From NCBI GenBank assembly GCA_025823825.1, contig GCA_025823825.1_4720.1: a DNA stretch of 64,000 bases. One strand, written 5' to 3'. Shown in pieces: positions 23,641 to 46,548 of this stretch. The stretch's first letter is position 1. Every line of letters starts with the position of its first letter. The notes under the pieces are model-generated. The model had not been told where the DNA came from and did not search any database. It was given only the letters and a program-made list of their open reading frames with translations. The stretch is from a phage. Made by a program: the position numbers and the translations under genes.

Positions 23641-25229
23641 TTATTTTTTTCCTCTTAAATTTACTACGTGTTCATTTAATCGAACAACTAATTGCACAAG
23701 TTGCTGACGGATATCTGCTGGACAAAGCATCAATCCTTTACGATCAGCTGGGACTTTCTCAAGGATTTCCGGGCCTGCTGCTGAAACATCCCAGTCCCAT
23801 TCACAAAACGCATCGGCCACCATGTTAATACCGACAACCGGTAAAGTTGTACGTTCATCTTCATACATGGCGTGTGGATACAATTTATTGACAGTAATGA
23901 TCTCCTGTGGTTTTAATTGGTGGATAATCTGATAAACATCGTCGCGTTTAACCTGGATACCTACGGTCAGCGCTGCCAGTTGAGGAAAACCCCAATGGTC
24001 TAATAAGCAAGCTGCAATCGCTAACGCTTTTGCTTGATGCACGGCTTCAATCGGTGCCAGACTTCTCGCCGGAAGATGGCTATCAAGCAACCATTGTGCC
24101 AGTGCTCGGCATCCACGGTTGATTGGTTTTAACTCAACGCTGTCATCGTGCTTAGCGTACGTGTATCCGTCGTAACGTTTTGCGATACGCGCATACATGT
24201 CTTCAACTTTACCGTAAGGTGCCGTTTCGTCGACGTCGTGTAACACACGTTCCATCTGGGTAAGATACGCGATGTCAAGAATGAGTACACGCGGTGAACG
24301 TTTATCTTTCACCATCAACGCATCAATCACGCCTTGACTGTCTTCATCTTGCGCGTTCCCTCGTGGGGTTTTCTCACGAATCGGTCCGCTGAAACGTCGT
24401 TCCGTACAAAGGTTATTCACATAGCTAAAGATCAGTGTTACCAGATGCGTACAACTCACCAACACCCCATCTTTAACGACAGGCTGTACGGCTTGGTCCA
24501 AGTCGCGTACGGCGAGACGGCGGACGATGGCTTGTGAACGCAACCAGCCGGGCACTTTCTCCGTCGACATGTAATCCACGGTCATCGACAGCGTGATCTT
24601 TTTATCACCCGTCTGTGCGCGGATATAGTCTTCCAGTCGGTCGTAAGCGGCGATATCATGAATGCGTGTTTTATACATCAACGACATAGCCACTTCTTCT
24701 TTACGGACTGTCCCGTACGTTTTCCCTGCGTCAATCAGAAACTCTGCCCAAATCGGCACCATCAGACGGACATAGATCGCTAACGCTGTTAACTCAACGT
24801 AATCATTTCGTAAATAGGTTTTCTCGGGTATATCGTCCTCACCTAATGTTGTTTTCATGTCCGGTGGTAATTTTACCCAACCTGGGGTATTACACAACGC
24901 CAGAATCTCTTCATACACAACCGGTTTGTAAATCTCACCAACAGCGCGACTCAACTCCTCCATTTGTTGTTGTGGAGCAATGTAGTTATCCATCGCTTCA
25001 CGTGCTTTAACGAACCCTTCGAAGATGTCGTCAATTCGACGTGGGTTCTTTTGTTCTATCCAGGCGAGATACTTGTTAATCTCCCGCATCTGATTGCTAG
25101 CCATATCCCCATCAATCTTGATGTAACCCTGGCCTGAAAATTCCACAGTACGTCCATCACGATGTTTGATGAGATAGTGATCCAGCTTTTCTTTTCCTTG
25201 CGTCGTAATGACGGGCACTATGTGCATAA
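23641..25229 (-). CDS. hypothetical protein
   Basis: Track start 25362 lacks an RBS; ATG at 25229 (MHIVPVITT) has AGAGG RBS. Confidence 0.55.
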
Positions 25230-25431: not shown

Positions 25432-26220
25432 TTAGAACGCTAAGCCATCAAAGGCTACGGACGGATCATCATCGTCATTTGCGCTTGGCGCATCCCAACG
25501 GGTATCAGGGGCCGCTGAAGCCGAACTTGATGCGTTAGAGTTACCGTTGTACTGGCCGTTACCAGCATTACGGTTACCGCCGCCGTTGTTATTGTTACGG
25601 TTATAGCTATTGTTGCCATTACTTACGCTACGGCTTTCACCGTCGAAATTGGTTGCGAGGATGCTCGGCAACACCGCACGATGAATACGTACAAATTCCA
25701 ACGCACAAAGCGGAGAAACAACCCCGATCTGTAAAGGTTGCCCAGACTCATCAACCAGAGCGTGGAAGCGCGGTGGCTTGAATACGAATTGGATGTTCGG
25801 TTTTTGGTACGCTGTTACGGCGATATATACCGAACCATCATCATTCTTACCAACCCATGTTGTACTTTCGGTAATCTGTTTCTTCTTACCTGGGTTATTG
25901 CGATCGTCAATAACCTTTTCGTTCTTCATCGCAAAGCGCTGACCTGGTTTACCCTTAGCAACCTGCTCGAGGATCGCAAGCAGGTTATAGAACGCGTATG
26001 AGCTCATGCGTGCCCAAATGCTTTCAGCGCGACCCTGCTGGTCTTTACGACCGGTGTAAACCGTGATACGCGGTTGATTCTTAGCAACGCTAATTTTCAA
26101 TGAGGGGATTGAATTACCGCCCTCAACCTTTTCGTCCGCCCACAGTTTCCAGTTGTTGTCGTCATACGCTGTAGGAATAATGTTTCCTTGTGGTTTACTG
26201 CCCGAATTCCAATTGCTCAT
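25432..26220 (-). CDS. hypothetical protein with SSB-like Asn/Gly-rich linker and acidic C-terminal tail
   Basis: C-terminus ...NGQYNGNSNASSS...SANDDDDPSVAFDGLAF resembles the disordered linker and acidic tip of single-stranded DNA-binding proteins. Confidence 0.5.
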   Translation of the reverse strand: MSNWNSGSKPQGNIIPTAYDDNNWKLWADEKVEGGNSIPSLKISVAKNQPRITVYTGRKDQQGRAESIWARMSSYAFYNLLAILEQVAKGKPGQRFAMKNEKVIDDRNNPGKKKQITESTTWVGKNDDGSVYIAVTAYQKPNIQFVFKPPRFHALVDESGQPLQIGVVSPLCALEFVRIHRAVLPSILATNFDGESRSVSNGNNSYNRNNNNGGGNRNAGNGQYNGNSNASSSASAAPDTRWDAPSANDDDDPSVAFDGLAF

Positions 26221-32108: not shown

Positions 32109-32123
32109 TACAGGCGTCCTCCT

Positions 32124-32348
32124 TTAGCAATGGTTGTTAGTTGCTTCTATTTCGTCAAGATAAGGTTCTACGTCATCGCCCTCCACGAATTCGTTGAACC
32201 AGCAGTCAATGGTAGAAATAACCGGTGACTGGTGTTCACATTTCTTAGATACCTTAAAAGGTACGTTATTATCCATCATACCGAGTTCGGGTCGAAAACG
32301 CCCGAAATGTTTCGCAGTCCAAATGTCTGGGACGATATGGTTGTTCAT
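32124..32348 (-). CDS. beta-prime-N exon 4
   Basis: Begins AUG AAC AAC CAU AUC GUC CCA (MNNHIVP, ~ MAVHVP / MNLHVP after DFDGD); a stop 3 codons upstream of the track start 32363 rules out a simple upstream extension. Confidence 0.5.
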   Translation of the reverse strand: [74 protein letters not shown]

Positions 32349-34714
32349 CGTAGCGTTCAGCATGAGTCGCTACCTCATGCCCGCAGCTTTACCTGCAGCT
32401 TCCGGTGTTACCGGAATGTCCAGAATACATCTTATCCATATTCCAAATGGAACGTAGGACTTCCGCGCTGGATCTCGCTTGAGACCACGTATTCGTTGAA
32501 CGTTCTCCTGAACGGAGCTTCGCTGCTGATCGAACATTGTCATGTACGGTAGGCGTCCCCGAAGGGATTGTCATTGAAGCCGCGTACATCCGCTACCTTG
32601 TTTCTACCTTATCGGTTCCTCTTACGAGGCGTAGCGGCCTTAGCCCTTCCCAGCAATTCACGGAATCCAAGCTCTTCCTTTCGGAAGGCAGGGCCTATGA
32701 TTAAGCATCCCCGTCGCTGTTATCGACTATATCTTCATCCTCGTTGCGAGGAGTCTCCCGTTTTGGTCTGTGTTTAACAGAGCCTACTCTACTCGACATC
32801 GCGTCTTTCGATAGTCTGTGAGCACACATCTTAACGAACATTCGTGGATTCCTAAACAGGTGAACGTTCTTGTTGAGATGCTTCGCTGCGGATTATTCCC
32901 GTCCTACCTCTTTTACCCTACCCAGTTCATTACGCTGGCCCTCATCTGTGTCACCACGATGAGTTGGTGTGTAGTCCGATTACAGAAACTTCCCGTCAAT
33001 TAGAGAGTTTTAACTACGTTCCTGTTACCAGAAACCAGATCCCGACGGTATCAATAAATCAACGTAAGTTATTGATTTAATTGAAAAAACTGAAATCTGC
33101 ATTATCTTAATCTTCAGTATGGTTCGCTACTCCATACCCGTACGTCATGTACTGCTTACGTCTTTCACGTAAGAAGAGACTATATCTTTCACCCTCAGCA
33201 TTATCTGGTCGGGGCTCCCATTTCGGCGGTCAGATGACCGGTGGTTTCCCACGCCGCTTGGCCCTAACGCCCGTAAGCGATAGTCGTTGAGCGCATCTCC
33301 GTTCTGGAGACTTCGCTGCGGATTCCCCAATCCTTGCCGCTTTTACCATACCTGAATGATTAGTTCAGCCCCACGCTCTGTTCCCAGGCGTGGTTGGTGG
33401 ACAAGGCTCTAAGTAGGTTCCCGCATTAGAGAGTTCTGCGTGACAACATTTCTGCGTTACTGGGCCTAACGACCCTTTCAAGATCATCACGCTTAACCCG
33501 ATGGTGTTATCCTGCGGATCGCGTTTAACCTTGGTGATTTCAAGACATTGGTTACTGCTTCGGTCAAGTGATGGGTTTCGAACAAAGCCACACACAATCC
33601 CATCGAACGGTGTATCAGCAATAAGCTCATCGTGCAGCTCGCTCATCATTGGATGATAATTACGGACATGTTCCGCAACGAACGCACGTGCTGCTCTCGG
33701 TGAATAACCACGATGGAATAACTTGGATTGGATATGTTCTTTATTGGTTAAAGTAAATGGTGCGTATGGGAAATGCAGATGATAATAACGATGGTTCGCT
33801 GTTATCGAACTGATTACGGTACGCGTGGTGAATGGATGTAATGTACCTAATATGTTTTTACGTGTGATACCTTTCTTCTTACCAATGAACTCATCGAAAA
33901 TTGCTGCGTGGTATTGCAGTAGCTTCAATTGCACTTTCGCCATCCAGTTTTCTTTCTTTCTGGCGCTCAAAGGTGTTGTTGGGTGATAGATACTGTTCAA
34001 CGTACCAATAGCATCGATCGCACCTTCCATTTTGCTATCTGCATAACGACCGGTTGGCGTATTCTCGATAACGAACATCATGGCCGCAGGAAAGCTGATA
34101 TACTGGCTGAAGAACTTATCACGATGGATACGGATGAATTCTCGTAGCGTGTCAACTTTCTCCGTGTTCTTCGGTCCACGTAACGTAGGTCCTTTATACA
34201 AGATCTCCATTATGCGATCGAAGTTCTGTATAAAGCTATTTACGCCGCGACGTATCCCGAATACATCGAATTGCTGCTCCAGATAGTTCTTGAGTTCGAT
34301 GGGTCGTTTTACATTTGGACGGTAACTGGCATCAATGAGCCACGTCATCGTTTCAAAGCTTTTGATATTCAACTCGCTTGCCAGCACGAGATGGACCAAC
34401 GGGTTAATGAACGCATCAATTCCTTCAGGAACACGCGCCCAAACCGTCGAACGAATCTCCTGTTCTGCCGGGTAGGTCACGACCGTTTTACAGTTTGGAC
34501 ACACCGTGCCGAGTAGCTCACCACGATTGTAGAAACCACAACCACATTGTGGTGTGATATCCAACGTATCGCTGGAGTAAACACGGGTGATAAAACTGTT
34601 TAATTTCTTCTTCTCTTCGACGACTTTTGTATCGTAATCATTCAACAAAATCGGCGTAAAAGGAAGTTCTGCGAGCTGTCTATCGAAACTCACGATATCG
34701 AGCATGATGGCCAT
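32124..34714 (-). CDS. RNA polymerase beta-prime subunit, N-terminal piece, interrupted by three group I introns; predicted mRNA join 34714..33472, 33105..33093, 32716..32704, 32348..32124
   Basis: Zinc finger CGCGFYNRGELLGTVCPNC (CxC-x13-CxxC), RNPSLDR ~ [15 protein letters not shown] ~ IQLHPLVC. Unspliced ORF ends in junk without the catalytic motif; the join restores [21 protein letters not shown] in frame (1494 nt, 497 aa). Confidence 0.6.
32349..32703 (-). ncRNA. group I intron 3 (ORF-less, 355 nt, divergent P7)
   Basis: Third copy: GGUAGAAACAAGGUAGCGG, CAGCAGCGAAG, P7 5' strand GAAUA (32494..32490) with complementary 3' strand UAUUC (32427..32423), two P9-like hairpins, terminal G at 32349. 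Confidence 0.45.
32704..32716 (-). CDS. beta-prime-N micro-exon 3 (13 nt, CGACGGGGAUGCU)
   Basis: Completes F then encodes D-G-D-A; ends in U; a UAA follows in frame if unspliced. Confidence 0.45.
32717..33092 (-). ncRNA. group I intron 2 (ORF-less, 376 nt)
   Basis: Second copy of the same core: GGGUAGGGUAAAAGAGG...AAUCCGCAGCGAAG (32923..32881), CACAGACUAUCG with GACUA at 32816..32812, GAAGAUAUAGUCG (32736..32724), terminal G at 32717. Confidence 0.5.
33093..33105 (-). CDS. beta-prime-N micro-exon 2 (13 nt, AUAAUGCAGAUUU)
   Basis: With the preceding U encodes Y-N-A-D and first two bases of F; ends in U. Confidence 0.5.
33106..33471 (-). ncRNA. group I intron 1 (ORF-less, 366 nt)
   Basis: Tetrahymena-type core elements on the minus strand: GGUAUGGUAAAAGCGG...AAUCCGCAGCGAAGUC (33352..33311), P7 5' strand GACUA (33285..33281), J8/7-P7 3' strand AGAUAUAGUC (33187..33178), P9-like hairpins, terminal G at 33106. 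Confidence 0.6.
33472..34714 (-). CDS. beta-prime-N exon 1
   Basis: AGGAG RBS and ATG at 34714; exon ends ...AAA GGG U with U at 33472 as first base of the Tyr codon. Confidence 0.55.
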
Positions 34715-34756
34715 GGGGTATCTCCTACAAATGAAAAAGAACGTTAGGACGTATAA

Positions 34757-34780
34757 GGGAGGGAGGTTGCCCTCCCTCCC
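34757..34780 (-). terminator. GC-rich stem-loop between chimallin candidate and beta-prime-N
   Basis: GGGAGGGAGG-TTGC-CCTCCCTCCC perfect 10-bp stem; T-rich sequence follows after a short gap on the minus strand. Confidence 0.4.
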
Positions 34781-34806
34781 GTCAGATTACATCGAACGTT
34801 CTTCCA

Positions 34807-36702
34807 TTAGAACAGGTTGAATGCCCCACCCATGTTGTTAACGCCAACATTCGGACGATCGCTACGTGCGTAGATGTTACCGGAGATGTTACCCAGACCA
34901 CGAGCACGTGCTGCCATGTTACCACGAACAGCGGTACCTGCCAGATGCTGGATGTTCTCAGGACGGATGGTGAAGCCAGCATCAGCAGCAGCTTCGATCA
35001 GCGCCTGCAGTGCTAACGGATCGAAGTCGTAACGCATTGCCCAGCCGGTTTGTTCCCAGCTACCAGACAGAACACGATCGATGATTTCGTGACGAGCGAC
35101 AACACGCTGAGACATCGTCATATCGGTACGGTCGAAGCTGTCTTCCCAAGCTTCTACGGTATCCGGGTTAGTGATGTTCATCATGTACAGATCGTCCATA
35201 TCACGAATATCGTGACGGTGACCATCCTGGTGGTTGTAGTGACCCAGCGGGATACGGTTACCGGTAGCGTAGACCAGCGGTAAGCCGTATTGATATTTCT
35301 TGCTGAAGCAACCCAGGGTAACATCATCGAAGGCACGGTAGAGTGCTTTGTAACCTTCAGAGACTTCCCGAACATCAGCCTCAACATTACCCGTATAGAT
35401 CTTCTCAGCCGCCGGGATCATACGCAGCAGCCAGCTGTATTCGCCTTCTTCCGGTACGTCGATAGAAATCAGCAGGGACGGATACAGTACCTGTTGCAGG
35501 AACTTGTAAATCTGCTCATTGGTTTGAGTAGACAGATCCAGCGGTGCGGTAACTTCCGGATCCAGCACCATCGCCAGAGCACCCGGGTTATGCGGACCGA
35601 TACCACGAGCAGCGTTGCTGATTAAAGACTGCGCCCATGCCATGCCGCTGTTCAGCGTAGCGATGGTGCCAATCAGACCCAACACGAAAGTGTTCGGTGT
35701 GAACGCATCCAGCTCCAGCGGGTAAGCGCTGGTCATCACGTAACGCGGCTGGTATTGTACAGTCGGCGGTACCGGATAACCGTTAACCAGAACAGGGCCT
35801 TGGTTGAAGGTCGGGTTCTGCGGGCTGTAAGTCAGGTCAATGTAACCGGTGGTGGCGACCAGACGCTGTTGACTATCGTAATCGCTCATCGCTTGACGGA
35901 TGCGGTTAGAGATAGTTACAGTGATGTCAGAACGCACAGGGTTACCAACAATATCGCTGTCCTGCATACCGCTGGTGTTGTACTGAACGCTGCTGATTGG
36001 CTGATCGCTTGCCATCATGCCCAGGTTGAACTGCGGCAGACCCAGTTTATCACCGAGACGGATTTCGATTGCGGTCTGGATTGCGTTATCTGCAGCAGAC
36101 AGCAGGGTGGTCGCCAGATGCGCAGATTCAGCGGTGATTTCATTGGTCACCACAGCCAGACCAGCGATACGAGCAGTACCATTAGACTTACCGCCAATAG
36201 CTGCATACATTGCCGCCATGACTTCGTTGATGAACGTACCGTTCAGGTTATCAACCCAGGTACGCGGTACCAGAATGTTACCATGCGGACCTTGTTCTTC
36301 ACGACGCGGCAGCGGAGCCAAACCGGCAACCAGCGGAAGCACATAACCGAAGAAGTGGTTATGATCACCAACTTTTGCACCACTCATAACGACCAGGGTC
36401 GGATACGGTACGCTGTACTGGTTCGGGTCAACCGCAACAAAGATGAAGTCGTCTTTGAACTGGGTATCTTCCAGATATTTCTCCATCAGACGACGGAGAT
36501 TCAGTACCTGCTCGGAGCCGGTATTACGGCTGATACGACGGCTCAGTGTACGGTTGATCGTACGCATCGTATGAGTTACTTTAGGACGGTCGGCAAAATC
36601 TGCAGCGGTTTCCAGCGCCTCATCAGCACGTTGTGCGGTGCGGGTTTCAGCTGCACGAATTTCTACATTATCGTTACCGTTATTACGTACGTCTAAGCCC
36701 AT
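34807..36702 (-). CDS. chmA: candidate chimallin (phage-nucleus shell protein)
   Basis: 631-aa ORF with AAGAGGAA RBS directly upstream of beta-prime-N, as I recall for phiKZ gp54-gp55; size matches described chimallins; promoter-like motif 66 nt upstream. No sequence comparison possible here. Confidence 0.45.
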   Translation of the reverse strand: MGLDVRNNGNDNVEIRAAETRTAQRADEALETAADFADRPKVTHTMRTINRTLSRRISRNTGSEQVLNLRRLMEKYLEDTQFKDDFIFVAVDPNQYSVPYPTLVVMSGAKVGDHNHFFGYVLPLVAGLAPLPRREEQGPHGNILVPRTWVDNLNGTFINEVMAAMYAAIGGKSNGTARIAGLAVVTNEITAESAHLATTLLSAADNAIQTAIEIRLGDKLGLPQFNLGMMASDQPISSVQYNTSGMQDSDIVGNPVRSDITVTISNRIRQAMSDYDSQQRLVATTGYIDLTYSPQNPTFNQGPVLVNGYPVPPTVQYQPRYVMTSAYPLELDAFTPNTFVLGLIGTIATLNSGMAWAQSLISNAARGIGPHNPGALAMVLDPEVTAPLDLSTQTNEQIYKFLQQVLYPSLLISIDVPEEGEYSWLLRMIPAAEKIYTGNVEADVREVSEGYKALYRAFDDVTLGCFSKKYQYGLPLVYATGNRIPLGHYNHQDGHRHDIRDMDDLYMMNITNPDTVEAWEDSFDRTDMTMSQRVVARHEIIDRVLSGSWEQTGWAMRYDFDPLALQALIEAAADAGFTIRPENIQHLAGTAVRGNMAARARGLGNISGNIYARSDRPNVGVNNMGGAFNLF

Positions 36703-36767
36703 TTGGGATTCCTCTTTTCTTAAACTTTATTAAATGACGTCATTGAATCAGCTTCTACTCGCTCATT

Positions 36768-36791
36768 CACCTAGGTAATATAACCCTGAAA
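36768..36791 (-). promoter_or_regulatory. promoter-like motif, copy 3 (upstream of chimallin candidate)
   Basis: Plus strand CACCTAGGTAATATAACCCTGAAA; 66 nt upstream of minus-strand start at 36702. Confidence 0.5.
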
Positions 36792-36956
36792 TTTTTTTCA
36801 ATATTGGTGTAACCACATTGAACGATATAAACCCCTAGGCGAACGCTGCCGAGAAGCAACATTCTTTCTACATATAATCAGGATATGTCTGTAAACTTTT
36901 ACTTCTCTTATTGAGAGTAATGTCATATCCGTTTACTACCTTCTTACGGAGTTCGT

Positions 36957-38051
36957 ATGTTTCGTGTTTTAAATAACCTCCCGCGAACATCATCGGGTGT
37001 GCAACCCGTCCCTCAGAAAGACTATCTAATACGCGAAGTTCAAAGAAACCTACAGACAATCCAGAACCACTATCAAGGTTTTACCTTCGCGGTTCAGAGC
37101 GATCACATCCTTGCGTTGCTGCTCGCACAGCTCCCTATGAGATACGACATCTCAGTACAAACTTACTACGACATGATTCTCGATCTTACGCCAGAATTGG
37201 GTAATCGTGTTAAGTTGACAACATCAAGATACGCGGGTAAGTTATTCGACGGTGCTTTCTATCCGGGATTGCACGAAGCTATTATCGCAACCGGTGAAAG
37301 TCGTCTTATTTCACGTGACGTTCTTGACAACTGGCGTAATTGGTCGCCGGTTAGAATCGTGACGCACCCATACGCAAATCTTCGTTACATTCCTCTTCAC
37401 CAAAAGCAGGTTGAAGAAGGACGAGGTTTTGCGGTCATTATGGTTGATGTACCTTTATTAGCATTACAGTATCGAATGTGGTCTTTGGTCATGGGTCATA
37501 ACGTCGACGGTAAATGGGTGGTTAAAGAACCGGTTACAAGCTTCCTTGCGAGTTTTCCGTTGGTTAACGCATTATACTCACACAACGATGTTGTTATACG
37601 CAATCGTTGTTTGTGGGTATCTCCGGCTAAGAATCCACTCAAATCACCCATTTACGTTAACGACCTTGATAACGTATTCAGCCAAGTCGTTCTGTCCGTA
37701 CAGCATCATTTATTACGAAGAAGACGAAGCTACACCGACATGCTTAAACAGATACCGAGTTTATACGGAGATCAGTACCAAGCAACCCGAATGGGTTACA
37801 CCGTCGATCTTCGACAAACCCGATGGGCAAGGGATCTGGGCTGTCTGTCGTTATGGCAACAACTCGTCACACTACAAAACGTATCTGAAAGCGTCGGGTT
37901 CAGCAGCCAAATCGATAACGACCTGTATCGTGCCGCCGACCGTAGTCTAAAAGAAGGTAACTGGGAGTCCTCTCCATTACCTGGCGATTTAAGACGTGAA
38001 GTTATTGCACAGGTTGCCGACCTCTTAAAAATTCTTCCCGCCGGTGCATAA
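36957..38051 (+). CDS. hypothetical protein
   Basis: 364-aa plus-strand ORF divergent from the chimallin candidate. Confidence 0.55.
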   Translation: MFRVLNNLPRTSSGVQPVPQKDYLIREVQRNLQTIQNHYQGFTFAVQSDHILALLLAQLPMRYDISVQTYYDMILDLTPELGNRVKLTTSRYAGKLFDGAFYPGLHEAIIATGESRLISRDVLDNWRNWSPVRIVTHPYANLRYIPLHQKQVEEGRGFAVIMVDVPLLALQYRMWSLVMGHNVDGKWVVKEPVTSFLASFPLVNALYSHNDVVIRNRCLWVSPAKNPLKSPIYVNDLDNVFSQVVLSVQHHLLRRRRSYTDMLKQIPSLYGDQYQATRMGYTVDLRQTRWARDLGCLSLWQQLVTLQNVSESVGFSSQIDNDLYRAADRSLKEGNWESSPLPGDLRREVIAQVADLLKILPAGA

Positions 38052-38117
38052 TCACCTCCCTCTTCCCTTGCATCCTCCCAACCCGTAAGGGAAGGGAGGA
38101 TGGGGTGGCGGGTTATG

Positions 38118-40271
38118 TTATTCTGCGGTTTCTTGCTTCGGTAAATAACTTGCTGCAATGTCTTGGGCTAACAATGTATTGTTTTTATTCGAGATGAAAA
38201 TACCGTAACTTTCCATTAACGCGTAATACGAACGAACGAGCGTAGAGATCAATCGACGAATATCCATACCTTGAATAAAGATATCAGGAAGCCCGGAGGC
38301 TTCGATCACCGGTAATGGTATCGTTAAGTTGCTTATCGTTTTCTTATCGTTACGTACAATCCAATCACGGAAACGTTGTTGTAACCCTTTATCCTCCCAT
38401 GAATCAATCCAATCGTTAAGAAGCGTTTTGTTCTTCGTCGCCAACGGCACACGCACCCCAACATAGGGCGGTTCGGGGCAATGACCGTACGATTGAGCAA
38501 ACACCTCTTCCCACATATCGTAAGACTGTTTCGTTACTGCAACATGCGGCTTCACTTTAACACGCGTTAAGAAATCGGGATCACCACGTTTCATTGACTC
38601 AACGATTTCGTTTTCTAACGAGATAATATCATCAAGAACCAATCGAATGCTGATCTTCTCATTACGTAACAGCTTATCCATGATACCACACATCATGCGT
38701 TCAACACGTTTGACGATCATTTTTGGTGCTGACGCGTCACGCATAACCGGACCTTTCAATTCCAGCTTCGGTGGATTGATAGGAACCCCTTCACGCATGG
38801 TCATGTACCCGTAATAGTTTTTACCCATCGAGGTTAACGACAGAATCAAGAACATATATTCGTTCTTCATTTCCATTACGTACATATGCTCTTTCGCTAC
38901 ACCGATATTACCAGAACACATCGCCATCAGATGAACCGTAATCTGCGTAACCAGATAGATAAGCGTATTTGCTAAGCGCGTCGAAATTGGATTGATCTCC
39001 ATATTTCCAAATCGCCACTGAACCCACTCCTGGCAGGTAAACACCGTCGAGTCGGTATCAGACAACACACCCACTTCACGGATTGCTGATGGGAAAGCAT
39101 AAACGCCAGCCGGTTGGTTCTCGGTACGCCAGAACGCCATAATCAAATCTGCGTAGCTTTGAATACGCTGTAACATCAATTTTGTCGTTGCTGCAGTAAG
39201 ACGATAACCAAGTTCATTTCCTTTTTCTAGCGCTACGTAAATCGCTTCCCCGTTCAAGAACTCCGTGCATTGTGCTGTAATCCAAGCGACCGTGTTGTTA
39301 TCCATGGAAGCAATAATGGCTTTAGCCTCTTCCATCGTTTCAACAGGTTCGGCTGCCAGTTCACATAACGAGTCAAGAAAATCTCGAACAAATTCAGGAT
39401 TAAGCTCACGTAACGAGTACAGGTTATTGCTGTACATGTAGCAGGCGCGTTCCAGTGGGGTTAAACCGGTAATTAACTCCCGGATAGTCAGTTCTTTCTC
39501 CGGGTCGAAAGTATATCGATGCAAACATTTCGATACGTTAGCCCAAACCTCTTCCGGCGTAGGGTAATGCAGTTTGTATTTTACCATTACCTGTTCAATG
39601 GCGTTACGATCGCTGTTGCGGACAATACTTACGATGTTTTCAATTGCAATATCACAATCGTAATAATGGAAATTGCCCGCAAGGAAACGTTCGTTGTTCG
39701 CATTGGCTGAACCTGAGGCACAGCGACACGTTGTCGTTAAACTTGGATGCGCGATCGGATTATAAAAAGGGTTAAACTTGGACGCCTGGGTTCCTGACAA
39801 ACTGTTATTATCTAACTTGGTGTTGGTCTGTCGTTTATCGTGTAACTCAGCTTCATCTTTACGTCCGTGTGCTTGTGCTATCGACATTTGTTTCTTTTGT
39901 TTCTTACGCAACTTACCGTTTTCAACCGCAAAGTCGCTTAGCACACTGGAACGTGTTTCACGTGGATAACAGTTAGCCCATACCGGCGTGATAATTAAAT
40001 TATTTTCTTTAATATCATTGAAGTATTGGCTGAACTTGATGACTTCTTTTTCTCGATTTCCTTCGGTACGCTGTGTTAATACAAGACAGTCGGGATCAAC
40101 CATCCCGTATTTTCCACCGGGACGAACCGTATCAAGGACAAACTGCAACGCTTCCTGCTGTGATATCCCACGCATGCGCATTAAGAACAGGGTATAATCC
40201 TGTACCGCTTCTTTGGTCATATCCAACGTACGACCATATCCGTTTTCATCGTAAAAGAACGGATTTTCCAT
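38118..40271 (-). CDS. possible RNA polymerase beta subunit N-terminal piece
   Basis: 717-aa ORF; QSYGHCPEPPYVGV near C-terminus resembles beta fork-loop HYGRVCPIETPEGPNIG; also contains a DTDS string. Assignment is weak. Confidence 0.4.
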   Translation of the reverse strand: MENPFFYDENGYGRTLDMTKEAVQDYTLFLMRMRGISQQEALQFVLDTVRPGGKYGMVDPDCLVLTQRTEGNREKEVIKFSQYFNDIKENNLIITPVWANCYPRETRSSVLSDFAVENGKLRKKQKKQMSIAQAHGRKDEAELHDKRQTNTKLDNNSLSGTQASKFNPFYNPIAHPSLTTTCRCASGSANANNERFLAGNFHYYDCDIAIENIVSIVRNSDRNAIEQVMVKYKLHYPTPEEVWANVSKCLHRYTFDPEKELTIRELITGLTPLERACYMYSNNLYSLRELNPEFVRDFLDSLCELAAEPVETMEEAKAIIASMDNNTVAWITAQCTEFLNGEAIYVALEKGNELGYRLTAATTKLMLQRIQSYADLIMAFWRTENQPAGVYAFPSAIREVGVLSDTDSTVFTCQEWVQWRFGNMEINPISTRLANTLIYLVTQITVHLMAMCSGNIGVAKEHMYVMEMKNEYMFLILSLTSMGKNYYGYMTMREGVPINPPKLELKGPVMRDASAPKMIVKRVERMMCGIMDKLLRNEKISIRLVLDDIISLENEIVESMKRGDPDFLTRVKVKPHVAVTKQSYDMWEEVFAQSYGHCPEPPYVGVRVPLATKNKTLLNDWIDSWEDKGLQQRFRDWIVRNDKKTISNLTIPLPVIEASGLPDIFIQGMDIRRLISTLVRSYYALMESYGIFISNKNNTLLAQDIAASYLPKQETAE

Positions 40272-40338
40272 AAATCCTCCAAAAGTTATTTAGTCTGTCT
40301 ACATCATCTCGTATATCTGTTAAAAAAGAAGGACGGCA

Positions 40339-40374
40339 TAAAAAAGAACCGATCCAGCCGAAGCCAGATCGGTT
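40339..40374 (-). terminator. intrinsic terminator-like hairpin
   Basis: AACCGATC / GATCGGTT 8-bp stem directly followed by T6 on minus strand. Confidence 0.5.
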
Positions 40375-40569
40375 AAAAAGGATAATAACTGACAGAAAGA
40401 TATCGATGATGTTCGTGAAACAAGATCTTCTCTCGTGTACAATGATGCTAGATCAGAGGGAGGTTGTAACACGAGAGGTGGTCCGCCAAAGAAGGAATAA
40501 AAACACGAACCTATCTTATTTCACTGATGGCACTAACCACTCAAAATATATAGTACTGTATGTAAAAGT

Positions 40570-40983
40570 TTACTGATTAATCAAGTCGTTAGCAACAATC
40601 TTGGTGTAGCCTGCCTGATTAAGAATTTGATTAATTTTCGTCACGTCGGTCGCATCCTCAATAACGATGCTGGGTTTATAGATCAGCGTCTTGGTAACGA
40701 CGATTGTACTCTCCTTAATCCAAGGAATCCCTAGAATCACATACTCACCATCGGCTGTAATGACCTCGACGTAATTGTATTTCGTCGGATCGTTCGGTAC
40801 ACTAGACGGGAGCCGGGAATAAATCTGTTGGTGAATGGCGTCTACATCACGACCGTTACGTACAGCTGTGCGATAATTGTACACAGCGCTAATTTCTACT
40901 CCGTTGAAGTTAACCCCAAGTTCTGGGGCGTACACATCAAAACTCACAACAGAGCCAATCTTTTCTAAATCAGAAGCTGGCAT
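40570..40983 (-). CDS. hypothetical protein
   Basis: 137-aa ORF followed by stem-loop plus T-tract. Confidence 0.5.
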   Translation of the reverse strand: MPASDLEKIGSVVSFDVYAPELGVNFNGVEISAVYNYRTAVRNGRDVDAIHQQIYSRLPSSVPNDPTKYNYVEVITADGEYVILGIPWIKESTIVVTKTLIYKPSIVIEDATDVTKINQILNQAGYTKIVANDLINQ

Positions 40984-40994
40984 AATAGCATCCT

Positions 40995-41396
40995 TTATTT
41001 AAAAATGTATTCATATCCGAAAGTCGTCGCTGACCAGACCCGGATAGATGATAGTGTTCCGCCACGATAAAACGTTTTTGTAAACTCCATATCCTGGACA
41101 ACACGATAATAAACACGTCCGATAATACGCACGATAAGGTTTCGTGATAACGATCTCTCCTCGCAGTATTCATCGATAAAGTCATCGTCGATATCCGATA
41201 AGACAACATCCGCAATTTCTTGCAGTAGATTCCTCATCAGCATCTGCCTTCCTTCGGTACCCCACCCAGACAAACAGTAATCGTCTTCTGCCTGACTATA
41301 GATGTCGTTAACCGCCTGTTCGAGCAGTTGCTCAAGATAGTAGTCATCGCGTTTTATAACGTGGCGACGGCGCTCAGTGGCGTATTTTTCCATCCT
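40995..41396 (-). CDS. hypothetical protein
   Basis: Track ORF 40995..41516 overlaps upstream gene; internal start near 41396 (MEKYATERRR) assumed. Confidence 0.4.
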   Translation of the reverse strand, partial: RMEKYATERRRHVIKRDDYYLEQLLEQAVNDIYSQAEDDYCLSGWGTEGRQMLMRNLLQEIADVVLSDIDDDFIDEYCEERSLSRNLIVRIIGRVYYRVVQDMEFTKTFYRGGTLSSIRVWSATTFGYEYIFK

Positions 41397-41842
41397 GTGT
41401 TTCTCTTGTTCGGCGTATGTATTAACGACGCCACAGTCTTTTCTGGATCGTCCCACAATGCGCGACGAAAACTGGATACTACCATAACGGTAGGATAGAT
41501 TTGTACAACCTCCCATCCGTAACGATGTGCGTTAGTCGTACGTCCGACATTGAACAGACATAACTGATTTAAGAAACAGAGCTGCATCTTCGTAAACAAC
41601 ACCATGTCTTCACGTTTAACGTATCCGAGGATATACGCATTCTCGAACGCCTCGCGTGACAAGACGGGACGATTAAGATACCGCAACGACAGTACCAACA
41701 ACGTTGTTATGCGCAACGGATCTTCTGGGTCATTCATGGTGCTCAGCTCTGCTTGTAACCAGTCAGGGATAGTAACCGTCAGACGATAGGTATCTGTTCC
41801 ACGATCAACCACATTCAATGTTGAAAAAGGCAACATATCCAT
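41354..41842 (-). CDS. hypothetical protein
   Basis: 162-aa ORF. Confidence 0.45.
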   Translation of the reverse strand: MDMLPFSTLNVVDRGTDTYRLTVTIPDWLQAELSTMNDPEDPLRITTLLVLSLRYLNRPVLSREAFENAYILGYVKREDMVLFTKMQLCFLNQLCLFNVGRTTNAHRYGWEVVQIYPTVMVVSSFRRALWDDPEKTVASLIHTPNKRNTGWKNTPLSAVATL

Positions 41843-42299
41843 GAATTCCTTCTAGCTCGAGGTTGTTCTCGCCGGTCTTCGGTAATAACCCACTGGCCGT
41901 TAACATCTGTGTCATCGAGTAGTCAAAGCACGGAAATATCAGGTTAACGGTTTCCTGGATCGCGTCAACATAACTATAAATGGCTTCATAATACTCACCG
42001 TCATGATCCACGCTAACCAGTTCCTGACACAGTTCTTCGCTTATCATTTCATATACCGGCGGATACCACGATTGAAATGGTCGCTGCATACGTAACGACC
42101 AGTACTCGTACGTCGTATACTGAAGCACGTCATAAGCCGATACATTAATGCGGTCGAAGAAAGCATACTTGTCCATATGCTGATACAACATCGCCAGTAC
42201 GGTTTCCAAGCACACCGATATCCGCACGCCATCATCTTTCCCGTTAAGAAAATTAGGTTTCTGCCGATAACGCACAAATGCCGACGGCTTTGATTGCAT
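41805..42299 (-). CDS. hypothetical protein
   Basis: ATG at 42299 (MQSKPSAF) overlaps the upstream stop as TAATG. Confidence 0.45.
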   Translation of the reverse strand: MQSKPSAFVRYRQKPNFLNGKDDGVRISVCLETVLAMLYQHMDKYAFFDRINVSAYDVLQYTTYEYWSLRMQRPFQSWYPPVYEMISEELCQELVSVDHDGEYYEAIYSYVDAIQETVNLIFPCFDYSMTQMLTASGLLPKTGENNLELEGIHGYVAFFNIECG

Positions 42300-42784
42300 T
42301 ATTCCACCACCAACCATAACGTCATACTCGTATCTAACGTAAAATTGAAATGCCACCAATCTTCTACACGTGGAATCCACGTACGAAGGATTTGGTTAAC
42401 TTCGCTTCGCATCACCGATAAACGACAACGAAAGTCGAACTTCTCATCATGGCCATAGTCTTCATGCATGAAAACTTCATCCAAAACGAACTCAAGTTGC
42501 ATGTCGACATCACGGCCAGAGATATTCCGTTTGTACAAATACAACTCAATCGTGTCGTAAAGCAACGTGTGAATATCATAATTTCCGTTCGGTGAGAAAT
42601 AAGGTAATCGCTCATCGAGCATCGTAAACAGATATTCGCTGTAGTTTAATAACGGGATGATGTACCGACGCCCTGTCTGTGGTGTGCGAATATGTATCGA
42701 AACCTGACTTGGGCGCGGAATAACCGACGGCTTAGAATCGTCTCTCTGAAATTGCTCTAAAGATCGCAACAAAGGTGGCCGCAT
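42299..42784 (-). CDS. hypothetical protein
   Basis: N-terminal about 65 aa of track ORF 42299..42982 look non-protein-like; internal start near 42784 assumed. Confidence 0.4.
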   Translation of the reverse strand: MRPPLLRSLEQFQRDDSKPSVIPRPSQVSIHIRTPQTGRRYIIPLLNYSEYLFTMLDERLPYFSPNGNYDIHTLLYDTIELYLYKRNISGRDVDMQLEFVLDEVFMHEDYGHDEKFDFRCRLSVMRSEVNQILRTWIPRVEDWWHFNFTLDTSMTLWLVVE

Positions 42785-43361
42785 TGTAACTCTCCAACGC
42801 CCAATTGTAAGGCCCTTCCAACATGTGTTCCCATACGTGAATAAACTCACTACCGAAGACAGGCTCCAGCGCCATGGTGAGATTCGTAAGTTCTGACGCA
42901 GCCGCATGGTAAGCATCAACATGTCTTTCCATTGACGGATCGTCTTCATTGAAAATACGTTCTGTGTCGCCAGCCCGTTCAATAAGTTCGGTAATGAGAT
43001 CTGTCCATGTCTCGTGACACGTCATCATTTCCTGTTCTCGACTTAGTATGCCGATGTCTGCGTGGACGCTGGACTCGAACCGGTCTAAAAGGACCCGAAG
43101 AACGTGCACCTTGTCGATGTATTTCACCGTTATCCAAGAAAGCGGTTGCCATCGACTCAGCATCCATCCGGTACTCGGGAACCCCAAACTCATATAGTAC
43201 GGGTTGCACGGGACCGAAGACGGAGCGGCGTTGTTTAAATCGTTCCTTAAGGGCAAGGCCTTGTTTAATGTAAATGGGTTCATTGGCGAGTTGTTTCGCT
43301 TTTCGTTTCGCGTGAGCCAATCGAAGTTCTTCCAATTGCCCAAGCCATTCAAATTGTTCAT
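42732..43361 (-). CDS. hypothetical protein, possibly the 3' part of a frameshifted gene
   Basis: First about 80 aa look non-protein-like, remainder protein-like; see finding. Confidence 0.4.
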   Translation of the reverse strand: MNNLNGLGNWKNFDWLTRNEKRNNSPMNPFTLNKALPLRNDLNNAAPSSVPCNPYYMSLGFPSTGWMLSRWQPLSWITVKYIDKVHVLRVLLDRFESSVHADIGILSREQEMMTCHETWTDLITELIERAGDTERIFNEDDPSMERHVDAYHAAASELTNLTMALEPVFGSEFIHVWEHMLEGPYNWALESYNAATFVAIFRAISERRF

Positions 43362-43956
43362 CTGTTAGCTCCTGGGGACGTTCAACAATCGCGCCAGATG
43401 GGCAGACATTGATCGTGATGTTAATTGATGGCATCGCCATCACTTGAGGGTTACTATTACGTACGCGGACAACATGTTCGGTTGCTGACTTACGATCAAC
43501 GCAATACTCTGTTTCTTGGAACTCAAATGCTTTTAACGGCGTTGGTTTTGTTTGACGTTTAGGAACGCGGCCAAGATCAACAATATAGGCATAATCGCAC
43601 ACACGTTCTATTCCGTAAATACGGTTATCCGACCAGTTCTTACCAAACAGCTTGTTGTGATGATAAGACAGATATTCGGTTACCATACCCTGGACAACAT
43701 CGAAGTCTTCTCGAAATTCAGGTTGGTACCAAATCGGGCCGAGAATATCTGCGAACGATTCATGGCGATATCGAGGATCATGTCGAGTCCATGTCATTCT
43801 CTGATTAAGATCGAAATCCACCAACAACTCGGTTAATTGCAATTTTTCCTTCGGAGAAAGCTGGCGTTGATGATGCAAACTCAGACAATCGATAAGCGGT
43901 AATGAAACCCACGATGCTAATGTGTACAAATCGATCCTGGCTAATCTCTTGGTCAT
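42979..43956 (-). CDS. hypothetical protein, possibly the 5' part of a frameshifted gene
   Basis: Protein-like for about 280 aa, then Arg/Pro-rich junk in the overlap with the next ORF. Confidence 0.4.
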   Translation of the reverse strand: MTKRLARIDLYTLASWVSLPLIDCLSLHHQRQLSPKEKLQLTELLVDFDLNQRMTWTRHDPRYRHESFADILGPIWYQPEFREDFDVVQGMVTEYLSYHHNKLFGKNWSDNRIYGIERVCDYAYIVDLGRVPKRQTKPTPLKAFEFQETEYCVDRKSATEHVVRVRNSNPQVMAMPSINITINVCPSGAIVERPQELTDEQFEWLGQLEELRLAHAKRKAKQLANEPIYIKQGLALKERFKQRRSVFGPVQPVLYEFGVPEYRMDAESMATAFLDNGEIHRQGARSSGPFRPVRVQRPRRHRHTKSRTGNDDVSRDMDRSHYRTY

Positions 43957-44047
43957 ACTCTTTTCCTAAGTCCCCATTGTTTATACACACGATATCTGGG
44001 AATAGTTAAAATATACGGCGTAAAACGAAGCAGGAGAGTTTCTGACG

Positions 44048-44368
44048 TCATTTTCTCCCTCTTCGAATACCACCGATACCTCTTTCGTCTAAGACGTCCC
44101 AAGCACGCTTTATTTCATCCTCCGTTGCTCTGGTATCTGAAGGGACAACCATAACACAGTCGTGGAATGGCCAATGTGTAGGTCTGGGGTCAGCGAACAA
44201 ATCATCCCATTCAAATGTCCATTCTTTCTTTGAGCGGTTGTAGTAGAGCGTAAGATACGTATTGGTGTATGCTGGATAACCGTGCATAACCTCAATATTC
44301 TTACGATCCAGCCGTTCCTGATTCCAATCGTTAAACCGCTTTCTTATTTTCTCCCACCATTTTCCCAT
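44048..44368 (-). CDS. hypothetical protein
   Basis: 106-aa ORF. Confidence 0.5.
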   Translation of the reverse strand: MGKWWEKIRKRFNDWNQERLDRKNIEVMHGYPAYTNTYLTLYYNRSKKEWTFEWDDLFADPRPTHWPFHDCVMVVPSDTRATEDEIKRAWDVLDERGIGGIRRGRK

Positions 44369-44421
44369 GCTTTCTCCTACGCGGCATAAAAGCCTGCCCC
44401 GAAGGACAGGCTCGATAGAAC

Positions 44422-44622
44422 TTAATAACCATCCAATTTCAATGAAGGATGGTTGACGATATGTGCGTGTTTTGCTGGGTCATATAGCTGATATGGAAAA
44501 TAGCCATGCCATTGACGACCTTGGCATTTCGTACACAAGAACTGACCAACACCTTGTCGATTCTCGTAAGCGAGTTCGGTACTATCAACATGACCGCAAC
44601 GTTCGCAAATAAACAGCGACAT
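44422..44622 (-). CDS. small zinc-ribbon protein
   Basis: 66-aa ORF with CERCGH...CTKC. Confidence 0.45.
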   Translation of the reverse strand: MSLFICERCGHVDSTELAYENRQGVGQFLCTKCQGRQWHGYFPYQLYDPAKHAHIVNHPSLKLDGY

Positions 44623-44660
44623 AGCGCATCCCCATTCACTTGAACTTTTTTGGTTCGGTG

Positions 44661-45641
44661 TTAGAAAAGCAAGAAACCGCTGTTCTTCGCTTCTGCTACA
44701 GTTTCATCACCAACTTTCGGTGCTTGTTGACGTGCGTTACGATGTTCGATGTAACGTTTCGCTTCGTCAGCGATTTGTTTGATAATACCCCCTAAACGAT
44801 CGGTACTTAAAACAAACGACGTCGCTTCACGAATCGGACTGCTTTCAGGCACAAAACCATCACAGCTGTAAATAGCGCTAACACCCATGACTTTTGTCGC
44901 GTCTTTCGGATAAAGCGTACAGAAAGCAATCGGGCTATCGTTCTCTTTCGTCCAATCGTATCCCATGAACGTATTCAGTTCGGTAATCGTTGGTTCCAAA
45001 CCGGTAACACGTGGATGGTTTAAGAAGTTTTCCAGGTCGGCGCTGTCAAGACGGCGGTTCTCGCCAGAAAACAGAACACAAAGCTGGCTAATAACAACCT
45101 GGACGTCCAGGTTGACATCCTGCTCCGATTTCCCATTTTCGCCATTCATGTGATAGCTAACAATCACCGGACGTTTCAATCCTTCTGCAGCTGCCATCAG
45201 TCCTTTAAAGGTACGATCGGCGTTGATCGTTTGACGCTCATCATCGAACGAGGCAACGATGCAACATACCACACGTTCACCACGTTCCAGCAGGTTAGCA
45301 ACCAACGCAGGACCGGCAACAGAACCTGAACCACCGCTCAAACTAAAGACCACGATATTAAATTTACCTGGCGTATGCTTATTGAGAATACCTGGGATTT
45401 GCGAGCAGATCAGTTCAGCGTTCTCGTCGCGCTTCTTACCAGAACCGTCTAACTCACGACCGGCCGCATCTTTAAAGATGTAAATATGATCGTCGTCCAG
45501 TGTGCTATCGCGTAGGTTAGCGCGGCTGGTATCAACATACGTCATGCTGTGTAATCCTTTCGCGACTTCGCCTTCAAATGCTGAGCCGATTTCGCCACCA
45601 CAACCACCGACAGCCCAAATATGTACTTGGTTCTCTTGCAT
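44661..45641 (-). CDS. phuZ: tubulin/FtsZ-like GTPase PhuZ
   Basis: AVGGCGGEIG near N-terminus and tubulin signature FSLSGGSGSVAGP (~ PhuZ GGGSGSVLGP); 326 aa with C-terminal tail; AGGAG RBS. Confidence 0.8.
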   Translation of the reverse strand: MQENQVHIWAVGGCGGEIGSAFEGEVAKGLHSMTYVDTSRANLRDSTLDDDHIYIFKDAAGRELDGSGKKRDENAELICSQIPGILNKHTPGKFNIVVFSLSGGSGSVAGPALVANLLERGERVVCCIVASFDDERQTINADRTFKGLMAAAEGLKRPVIVSYHMNGENGKSEQDVNLDVQVVISQLCVLFSGENRRLDSADLENFLNHPRVTGLEPTITELNTFMGYDWTKENDSPIAFCTLYPKDATKVMGVSAIYSCDGFVPESSPIREATSFVLSTDRLGGIIKQIADEAKRYIEHRNARQQAPKVGDETVAEAKNSGFLLF

Positions 45642-45705
45642 GTGAACTCCTAACTTAATATGTATTTAACGCACAATGAATCTTTCTTTGCTAAAGGGGT
45701 GACCC

Positions 45706-46548
45706 ATGGGTGCTATTGACTACAGTGTAGATCGTATCTGTCGTACAATACCGGCAGATATCCTACAGTATTGCTATATCGATCGTTACGACTGGCGTAA
45801 TCGCTATCCTCGTTCCGTAGAAGACATCATTACCGATTGGGTAATCCGTAAACGGGTTATCGGTGACATCGATATCTACGGGGGACTACAAACCGTTATT
45901 CCCCTTGACGATGCAGGTGTCACTATCGAAGAAGTCACCATTAACTGTTATGTTTTCCATATTCCGTTGGAAGCCACGCAGGGACGTTACATCACGTCCG
46001 CATTATCCATTATCTCAGGAAGCGTGAACAACTACGGAATAAACTATAACGGTCAATGGGGCGCTTTCAACCAAACCCAGTTTCAACGTCAGCTTTGTGG
46101 GTGGAACCCTGCAAGCAACACGTTACAGCAAGGGATGAACGCGTTCGGTCCCATGAACGTTCTTAGTACAGCCAACGTCGACATCATCGCCCCTAACACC
46201 ATCATGGTGAACAACGTCACGCCTGTACAATTTCCCCTGAGCCTACGCTGTTTCCTTGCCCACGATCCAGAACTCACCAACCTCAGCATGGAGGTTTGGA
46301 ACGACTTCTACAAACTCTGTTTATACGCCACACAAAGTGACATCTACAACAGAACCGTTATCCGTCTCGATAGAGGTGTTACAGCACAAGGACAAGAAGT
46401 CGGTGCATTCAAGGAATACATCGATCGCTTTGCTGATGCTGAAAACACGTACCAAGAATTCCTGAACGAAACGTGGGCGGGCGTTGCTGCCTGGAACGAT
46501 CCACAAACTAAACGTCGTGCTATTCGACTACAAACCGGTTACTTCTGA
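45706..46548 (+). CDS. hypothetical protein
   Basis: 280-aa plus-strand ORF followed by a stem-loop terminator. Confidence 0.55.
   Translation: MGAIDYSVDRICRTIPADILQYCYIDRYDWRNRYPRSVEDIITDWVIRKRVIGDIDIYGGLQTVIPLDDAGVTIEEVTINCYVFHIPLEATQGRYITSALSIISGSVNNYGINYNGQWGAFNQTQFQRQLCGWNPASNTLQQGMNAFGPMNVLSTANVDIIAPNTIMVNNVTPVQFPLSLRCFLAHDPELTNLSMEVWNDFYKLCLYATQSDIYNRTVIRLDRGVTAQGQEVGAFKEYIDRFADAENTYQEFLNETWAGVAAWNDPQTKRRAIRLQTGYF

Follow-up and report, generated by a model that had tools for sequence, protein, structure and literature searches.

Predicted group I introns crowd the catalytic codons of a non-virion RNA polymerase gene in a Goslar-like jumbo phage

Introduction

Escherichia phage vB_EcoM_Goslar is the point of comparison for the DNA described here, a 64,000-nucleotide phage sequence (GenBank assembly GCA_025823825.1, contig GCA_025823825.1_4720.1; hereafter the window). 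Our analysis mainly concerns one gene of this window, which encodes the N-terminal part of the beta-prime subunit of the non-virion RNA polymerase (nvRNAP) and is called beta-prime-N below, together with the nearby genes for chimallin (ChmA), the major shell protein of the phage nucleus, and for the phage tubulin PhuZ. In Goslar, a GFP fusion of gp189 (chimallin) forms a shell around the phage DNA, and gp201 (PhuZ) builds a filament vortex whose D202A mutant impairs rotation of the nucleus (PMC9891218). The Goslar chimallin has been solved at 2.3-2.6 Å and its lattice resolved both in situ and in vitro; its tetramers assemble into a flexible square lattice by means of an N-terminal segment and two C-terminal segments, CTS1 and CTS2 (PMC9365700). 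ChmA is reported to be essential in Goslar (PMC10541120).

In phiKZ, the corresponding genes follow one another in the order gp50 (large, of DNA polymerase size), gp52 on the opposite strand, gp54 (chimallin), gp55, gp56 (an intron open reading frame, ORF) and gp56.1. The first-pass annotation of the window had likened the locus to a chimallin/nvRNAP arrangement of phiKZ, and the succession of gp54, gp55, gp56 and gp56.1 agrees with it. It is the virion polymerase, injected by the phage, that transcribes from phiKZ-type promoters in the early phase of infection.

Multiple introns in phage genes are exemplified by orf142 of Staphylococcus phage Twort, with its three group I introns, and by td, nrdB and sunY of T4. 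Self-splicing group I introns are found in conserved catalytic-site codons of essential phage genes, where homing endonucleases are variably present (PMC12908238).

We consider it likely that beta-prime-N of the Goslar-type phages is an insertion hot spot for group I introns. Four insertion sites are crowded into 26 nt at the YNADFDGDA codons, and which of them are occupied varies among four phages of at least 95% identity. On the same reading, the Goslar annotation misses one of these introns, intron C, and lists the last exon of the gene as gp185.

The polymerase gene and its introns

By homology, the gene downstream of chimallin is that of the nvRNAP beta-prime N-terminal subunit, the counterpart of phiKZ gp55. 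Its open frame (33365..34714, minus strand, 449 aa) starts 92 nt after chimallin on the same strand, and the first-pass annotation was correct in placing a 631-aa ORF directly upstream of it. The frame matches PHROG 2987 (phage RNA polymerase beta/beta-prime) with an E-value of 2e-113, its best match in the PDB is 7ogp_A (phiKZ nvRNAP, PHIKZ055 / PHIKZ056.1; E 1.4e-59, residues 21-414), and residues 1-414 are 100% identical to Goslar. Split beta-prime subunits occur in both phage polymerases, and 'RNA polymerase beta subunit', the product name in RefSeq, would fit either enzyme, so that the gene might be assigned to the virion-packaged polymerase instead. We regard this assignment as highly improbable: the best-matching relative of solved structure, phiKZ gp55, belongs to the purified nvRNAP as one of its chains (7ogp), and in phiKZ it is gp55 that stands beside chimallin. 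Furthermore, tblastn gives essentially a single location in each genome (307 locations across 305 records), and the virion paralogue is therefore too distant to be confused with beta-prime-N.

The nvRNAP gene appears to carry three group I introns, A, B and C, which are predicted to be self-splicing (Table 1). All three, together with two micro-exons of 13 nt, are located within the codons for YNADFDGDA, and the catalytic NADFDGD stands in an uninterrupted frame only after their conceptual removal. Each micro-exon separates two ribozymes and therefore has to serve as the 3′ exon of one intron and as the 5′ exon of the next. The three junctions all follow the pattern U/...G/ (the slash marks the splice site), with U as the last base of the 5′ exon and G as that of the intron, and removal of the introns restores YNADFDGDA. 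The guide pairings of P1, where the U would pair with a G, and of P10 were read by eye; in intron B, for example, the guide CCGUCG-GGAUCUG pairs by eye with CGACGG of the 3′ exon and with CAGAUUU of the 5′ exon. The predicted spliced junctions are GGGU/AUAAUG, GAUUU/CGACGG and GAUGCU/AUGAAC.

The conceptually spliced product comprises 497 aa and reads ...LKGYNADFDGDAMNNHIVPDIWTAK..., with ...LKGYNADFDGDAMNNHIVPD... as its catalytic segment and GYNADFDGDAMNNHIVPDIWTAK as the predicted peptide across the junctions. It aligns without gaps across all junctions with the intronless homologues of Simmy50, PhiPA3, D6 and KpSz_1. More than 200 phage genomes encode this region uninterrupted, and in intronless homologues a single tblastn piece covers the exon 4 sequence. 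The beta-prime-N mRNA would thus have to lose three self-splicing introns before a functional subunit could be translated.

Intron detection depended on the search threshold. At its gathering threshold, which is 50 bits for RF00028, Rfam gave no match in the whole window, and the introns surfaced only with E-value thresholds. The folding energies of single introns (minimum free energy z-scores of -2.26 for C and -1.26 for A) are too weak to serve as evidence. When introns A and C were compared with phage genomes by BLAST, only short matches of core motifs (~70-90%) to unrelated phage introns were returned, and no donor. As a side observation, intron A resembles Escherichia phage Av-05 in two parts: positions 33238-33325 match its bases 65-152 at 85.6% identity, and another part matches the intron region in its DNA polymerase gene at ~69%.

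Intron content of the closest relatives

The window is colinear with Goslar (NC_048170) from position 12 to 64000, at 96.2-97.7% nucleotide identity (local BLAST against Goslar 130000-210000), and a megablast of 33000-46000 returned Goslar as its sole match (97.8% identity). Fifteen Goslar proteins compared with the window are 97.5-100% identical, with ChmC, gp174 and two polymerase subunits reaching 100%. Two further relatives are present in IMG/VR, UViG_3300045988_173921 (L011) and IMGVR_UViG_3300011560_000001 (L010; 237.5 kb); in both, the chimallin is 97% identical and the gene block is conserved. No other phage record with a chimallin at 60-95% identity was found. Taken together with the protein matches described in this article, the colinearity, the identity of the 15 proteins and the absence of intermediate chimallins point with near certainty to a Goslar-like, nucleus-forming jumbo phage of E. 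coli (Chimalliviridae) with genes for chimallin, PhuZ and nvRNAP subunits. The window phage and Goslar probably belong to one species. The placement of the window in a nucleus-forming jumbo phage, proposed by the first-pass annotation, is borne out by published experiments on the near-identical Goslar, which cover the nucleus, the chimallin shell and the PhuZ vortex (PMC9891218, PMC9365700).

Only two large indels distinguish the window from Goslar in the local BLAST, both just 3′ of exon 1 of beta-prime-N. The first, and the only insertion relative to Goslar, is intron A, with BLAST breakpoints at 33106-33473. It is a presence/absence polymorphism: Goslar reads AAAGGU-UAUAAUGCC without interruption, micro-exon 2 being continuous with exon 1. 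The second consists of 1065 bp that Goslar carries in addition (168217-169281) within intron B. This segment holds the HNH endonuclease gp186 and is cleanly absent from the window, at 32717-32720, and from L011. It is bounded by a 14-nt inverted repeat, TTACGTGCACCGAC and GTCGGTGCACGTAA.

Four near-identical phages thus show differing sets of introns. The window and L011 both have A, B and C without an endonuclease. Goslar differs in lacking A, in having B with gp186, and retains C. L010 has neither A nor B; its gene (region 9240-9964) contains an intron C′ followed by C. Intron C′ has a length of 350 nt, is 71% identical to C and occupies a fourth site, AACGCU/GACUUU. Both L010 introns give full-length Intron_gpI matches, at 28 bits (the C orthologue, E 5.7e-5) and 26.4 bits, and the L010 gene splices conceptually to an identical protein over the C-terminal stretch compared, active site included. 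In the L010 copy of intron C, the base preceding the 5′ splice site is C, not U. Complete E. coli genomes contained no match to the source sequence. The 5′ junction of intron A has no exact match in IMG/VR because L011 carries single-nucleotide differences there.

The exon bases around these sites have also diverged. Between the window and Goslar, seven of the 39 exon bases flanking the intron sites differ (32704-33490), all of them synonymously, which amounts to ~18% as compared with ~2% elsewhere. This suggests co-conversion during homing, or selection for targets resistant to the endonuclease.

Intron C and Goslar gp185

Goslar gp185 (NC_048170 167622-167861; 32124-32363 in the window) is in all likelihood the last exon of beta-prime-N, annotated as a hypothetical protein. 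Exon 4 proper begins at 32348, 15 nt past the annotated ATG of gp185 (32363). This ATG, the GAGG upstream of it and an in-frame TAG are all part of a hairpin near the 3′ end of intron C whose pairs covary. The 3′ end takes the same form in A, C and C′, a 7-bp hairpin around GUAGCGA followed by ~11 nt and then G, and the 3′ end of intron C was fixed by comparison with the other two. In an RNAalifold analysis of seven A, C and C′ sequences, 43 of 86 pairs show compensatory changes, albeit with few independent sequences and a poorly aligned 5′ half of A.

The annotation could also be taken at face value: there would be no third intron, beta-prime-N would end at the TAA after ...NADFDGDA, and gp185 would be translated separately from the GAGG ribosome-binding site. 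Several facts speak for this. An in-frame TAA follows exon 3 directly, GAGGT stands 8 nt before the gp185 ATG, RefSeq annotates gp185 as an ORF of its own, the Rfam match of intron C in the window is partial with just 16.7 bits, and the RNA polymerase genes of these phages are split elsewhere. We nevertheless judge it unlikely. In L010, the 7-bp hairpin is kept by compensatory changes (GCAUGAG/CUCAUGC to AUACGAA/UUCGUAU) with loss of the ATG, and the L010 orthologue of intron C is a full-length group I match. The same hairpin, ~11 nt and G also end introns A and C′, whose boundaries are set by restoration of the reading frame and, for A, by its absence from Goslar. Finally, splicing at GCU/...G/AUG yields a protein that aligns without gaps to the intronless homologues.

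The acceptor adopted for intron C replaces other candidates. The acceptors G/CGACUC (DGD-RLMLNAT) and CAUG/CUG (DGD-LNAT or DGDA-LNAT), and the annotated ATG of gp185, would each insert 3-6 residues relative to the homologues. These three choices were overturned by the comparison with L010 and by the common 3′ ends of A, C and C′. A pseudo-exon ending in ...ILDIPVTPEAAGKAAGMR and a stop codon, which resembles a bacterial VHVPLTLEA segment, was rejected because it lies inside intron C (elements P8, J8/7 and P7′ and the P9 hairpins).

Chimallin

The first-pass annotation proposed the 631-aa ORF at 34807..36702 as chimallin without stating its strand, which is minus, and all profile and structure matches agree with the proposal. 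Pfam PF25677 (Chimallin_Phikzvirus) matches residues 19-595 over profile positions 10-591 of 627 with E 2.1e-25 and scores 89.4 bits, the curated cut-off being 27. For PHROG 4795 (nuclear shell protein), the E-value is 1.1e-51. The cryo-EM structure of the Goslar chimallin, PDB 7sqt, aligns end to end (1-631) with 1420 bits, and weaker matches are obtained to the chimallins of PhiPA3 (E 2e-20) and 201phi2-1 (E 4.5e-10). Identity to Goslar gp189 (YP_009820873) is 98.9%, with seven substitutions.

That the protein is instead a capsid or another structural component of the virion has a negligible probability. We found no evidence in its favor, the nearest structural-type match being that of the neighbouring plus-strand gene at 36957..38051 (PHROG 14481). 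Pfam, PHROG and PDB return only chimallin, with no capsid or other structural family among their matches, and the protein is 98.9% identical to one whose shell lattice has been solved in situ and in vitro (PMC9365700). Given its near-identity to the Goslar protein, ChmA of the window would use its N- and C-terminal segments to assemble itself as a flexible square lattice of tetramers around the replicating phage DNA. By analogy, this variant may be expected to form the shell around phage DNA in infected cells.

Promoters and transcription

The minus strand upstream of chimallin reads gaaaaaaaTTTCAGGGTTATATTACCTAGGTGA and includes the phiKZ-type early-promoter motif TTCAGGGTTATATTACCTAGGTGA. 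The promoter-like motif noticed near the 631-aa ORF in the first-pass annotation is therefore real: it stands 64 nt before the ATG, and its extended form is present in four copies where none is expected by chance. With up to three mismatches allowed, the 24-nt consensus TTCACGGYTATATTACYTWGGTGA has four copies in the window and none in 100 shuffled sequences. All four are on the minus strand, each upstream of a minus-strand gene. Only this extended motif is significant; the core TATATTAC taken alone is not enriched in the window (four sites against 2.4 expected). The motif agrees with predicted promoters of other phages, namely TATATTAC in phiKZ and the consensus ...TTTRARR_BTATATTACDWHDGTG in 201phi2-1 (PMC7058600, Table 2).

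The chimallin gene would accordingly be driven by a phiKZ-type early promoter and read by the injected virion polymerase, and such a promoter class fits a protein that is needed first. A hairpin scan found no terminator-like structure in the 92-nt gap between chimallin and beta-prime-N, and the two genes are probably co-transcribed. From the upstream early-type motif and the lack of an intervening terminator we infer that the intron-bearing polymerase gene, too, would be expressed early. Sites resembling sigma-70 promoters are not enriched in 32000-46000 (17 found, 23 expected from shuffles), which is consistent with transcription independent of the host polymerase.

PhuZ and the arrangement of the locus

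The 326-aa protein at 44661..45641, singled out in the first-pass annotation for its GGSGSV signature, is confirmed as PhuZ. PHROG 4733 (tubulin PhuZ) matches over its full length (1-323 of 323) with E 2.4e-68. PDB 9pm9, a 328-aa chain deposited as a tubulin/FtsZ GTPase-domain protein (Goslar gp201), matches with 729 bits, followed by the PhuZ structures of phiKZ (3zbp, E 1.1e-29) and of 201phi2-1 (3r4v and 3j5v, E ~6e-15). Identity to Goslar gp201 is 99.4%. The GTPase motifs are intact, with GGCGGEIG at residues 12-19 (G-rich T1 loop) and GGSGSV at 103-108 (T4 signature loop). The catalytic aspartate for GTP hydrolysis is kept in DSADLEN (residues 199-205), where D202 corresponds to Goslar D202. 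The generic Pfam Tubulin profile reaches 30.4 bits, under its gathering cut-off of 33, as expected for a divergent phage tubulin, and the identification is therefore based on the PHROG and PDB matches. As in Goslar, PhuZ would hydrolyse GTP and form a filament vortex that rotates the nucleus.

The chimallin and PhuZ sequences end alike, in ...GGAFNLF (34807-34830) and ...NSGFLLF (44661-44690), respectively. These G-x-F-x-LF tails are carried by proteins whose C-terminal tails dock onto neighbouring subunits; the resemblance is probably a coincidence.

Chimallin, beta-prime-N and PhuZ had been described in the first-pass annotation as one phage-nucleus module. All the genes are indeed present, in a conserved synteny block, but the linkage of PhuZ was overstated: ~8 kb separate it from chimallin, an interval that holds the DNA polymerase gene, some dozen small ORFs and at least one strong hairpin resembling a terminator. 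The 'module' is a conserved synteny block and not an operon. One co-regulated, operon-like unit might be imagined, as the three genes are on the minus strand inside 12.3 kb and Goslar and the window have this block in common. This is very unlikely in view of the dozen or so intervening genes and of the hairpin, which has a 12-bp stem and a T-tract (40347-40374). In the Goslar annotation, the small ORF after PhuZ is closely followed by a second terminator (180588-180607), and the motif scan of the window revealed no copy of the 24-nt early-promoter motif upstream of PhuZ. PhuZ is also dispensable within the family, Erwinia phage Asesino being without it (PMC11724907).

Most window genes are on the minus strand, and the remaining features are compiled in Table 1. 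The name ChmC for YP_009820861.1 was taken from 10.1101/2023.09.22.559000. Goslar YP_009820859.1 is listed as a homologue of PhiPA3 gp63, and no ChmB has been identified in Goslar-type phages (PMC10643120).

Table 1. Positions of the features discussed in the text (window coordinates)
Feature	Position	Strand	Evidence or remark
beta-prime-N exon 1	33472..34714	minus	Ends ...AAAGGGU; protein ...SVMILKG and first base of a Tyr codon
Group I intron A, 366 nt (predicted)	33106..33471	minus	Rfam Intron_gpI full-length, 32 bits, E 7.6e-6 (33492..33156)
Micro-exon 2, ATAATGCAGATTT (RNA AUAAUGCAGAUUU), 13 nt	33093..33105	minus	Rest of the Y codon, followed by N A D and two bases of F
Group I intron B, 376 nt (predicted)	32717..33092	minus	Rfam Intron_gpI 46.9 bits, E 2.7e-10 (33083..32717); corresponds to the intron annotated in Goslar
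Micro-exon 3, CGACGGGGATGCT (RNA CGACGGGGAUGCU), 13 nt	32704..32716	minus	Last base of the F codon, followed by D G D A
Group I intron C, 355 nt (predicted)	32349..32703	minus	Partial Rfam match, 16.7 bits (32665..32461); unannotated in Goslar
beta-prime-N exon 4, MNNHIVPDIW...NNHC, stop included	32124..32348	minus	Makes up most of hypothetical gp185 in Goslar
Chimallin (ChmA), major phage-nucleus shell protein, 631 aa, ATG start	34807..36702	minus	Pfam, PHROG, PDB, Goslar gp189
phiKZ-type early-promoter motif TTCAGGGTTATATTACCTAGGTGA, preceded by an A-rich tract	36767..36790	minus	64 nt upstream of chimallin ATG
Motif copy	7282-7305	minus	Upstream of HD-domain protein gene
Motif copy	25277-25300	minus	Upstream of gp68-like nvRNAP subunit
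Motif copy	30556-30579	minus	Upstream of small ORF
nvRNAP fifth subunit (phiKZ gp68 homologue)	23641..25227	minus	PDB 7ogp_B PHIKZ068, E 8.6e-28
nvRNAP beta N-terminal subunit (phiKZ gp71-73 homologue)	18098..20266	minus	PDB 7ogp_C, E 6.1e-86
nvRNAP beta-prime C-terminal subunit (phiKZ gp74 homologue)	14028..16034	minus	PDB 7ogp_D, E 1.3e-86
PhuZ phage tubulin, 326 aa, ATG start	44661..45641	minus	PHROG 4733, PDB, Goslar gp201
Divergent family B DNA polymerase, 717 aa	38118..40271	minus	Pfam PF20286, E 4e-204; 99.4% identical to Goslar
Conserved 364-aa protein, gene oriented divergently to chimallin	36957..38051	plus	PHROG 3938, E 4e-53; PHROG 14481 virion structural protein, E 6e-11
ChmC, nucleus-associated RNA-binding protein (Goslar gp176)	25432..26220	minus	100% identical to YP_009820861.1
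PhiPA3 gp63 / phiKZ NP_803635 homologue, nucleus-associated	22053..23639	minus	100% identical to Goslar YP_009820859.1
PhiPA3 gp64 homologue	20717..21997		

Weighing the evidence

No finding contradicts the identifications, but a number of points limit the picture developed above. Splicing of beta-prime-N is a prediction from sequence, and all three introns score below the RF00028 cut-off of 50 bits (B 46.9, A 32, C 16.7). The promoter assignment relies on a sequence motif and on promoters that are themselves predicted (unmapped), and the co-transcription of chimallin and beta-prime-N is deduced solely from a missing terminator-like hairpin. PhuZ and chimallin do not form one transcription unit. 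The published experiments were performed on Goslar, and the functions of the variant studied here are carried over by near-identity. In this respect, the chimallin differs from that of Goslar at residues 37, 38, 81, 441, 444, 445 and 449 (counted by hand in the 7sqt alignment), and PhuZ has two substitutions relative to gp201. As no chimallin substitution lies beyond residue 449, the C-terminal third, which contains the tails in the solved homologues, is unchanged.

Significance

The chimallin, PhuZ and polymerase genes flagged at the outset are all already known, and the window adds a sequence variant. What their identification contributes is annotation, for the window and some dozen neighbouring genes, and not new biology. 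The by-product is more useful, namely a corrected exon-intron structure of nvRNAP beta-prime-N for the Goslar-type phages, together with intron and endonuclease content that varies between near-identical isolates. If the three introns are real, middle and late transcription of the phage would depend on three successive self-splicing events. The corrected structure is relevant to intron-endonuclease competition between co-infecting chimalliviruses, and to attempts at expressing or knocking down beta-prime-N.

Comparison with known systems

Goslar (NC_048170 / MK327938) has the gene order and strands of the window, and its nvRNAP subunits, ChmC and DNA polymerase are 99-100% identical. Structural change between the two is confined to the beta-prime-N gene.

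The window has in common with phiKZ the synteny of DNA polymerase, gp52-like gene, chimallin and beta-prime-N, the 364-aa gene sharing the position and strand of phiKZ gp52; PhuZ of phiKZ is gp39. The order of chimallin and beta-prime-N is likewise annotated in Erwinia phage Simmy50, the coordinates of PhiPA3 gp053/gp054 agree with it, and in Pseudomonas phage D6 an unannotated ORF with the size expected of chimallin (that of a 631-aa protein) stands upstream of beta-prime-N. The phiKZ promoter core TATATTAC and the set of polymerase subunits (7ogp chains) are also matched in the window, whereas phiKZ gp54 is only ~25% identical to the window chimallin. In phiKZ, beta-prime-N is interrupted near the NADFDGD codons by an intron-sized gap with the gp56 (HNH) ORF. 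It has a single interruption at this site, in contrast to the three of the window.

PhiPA3 gp210 provides a further example of an intron endonuclease in a chimallivirus RNA polymerase gene. As in the Twort, T4 and PhiPA3 systems, the exon bases flanking the introns of the window show synonymous divergence of a co-conversion-like kind. Unlike in these systems, the introns of the window are only 13 nt apart, and four sites are found within 26 nt across four near-identical phages.

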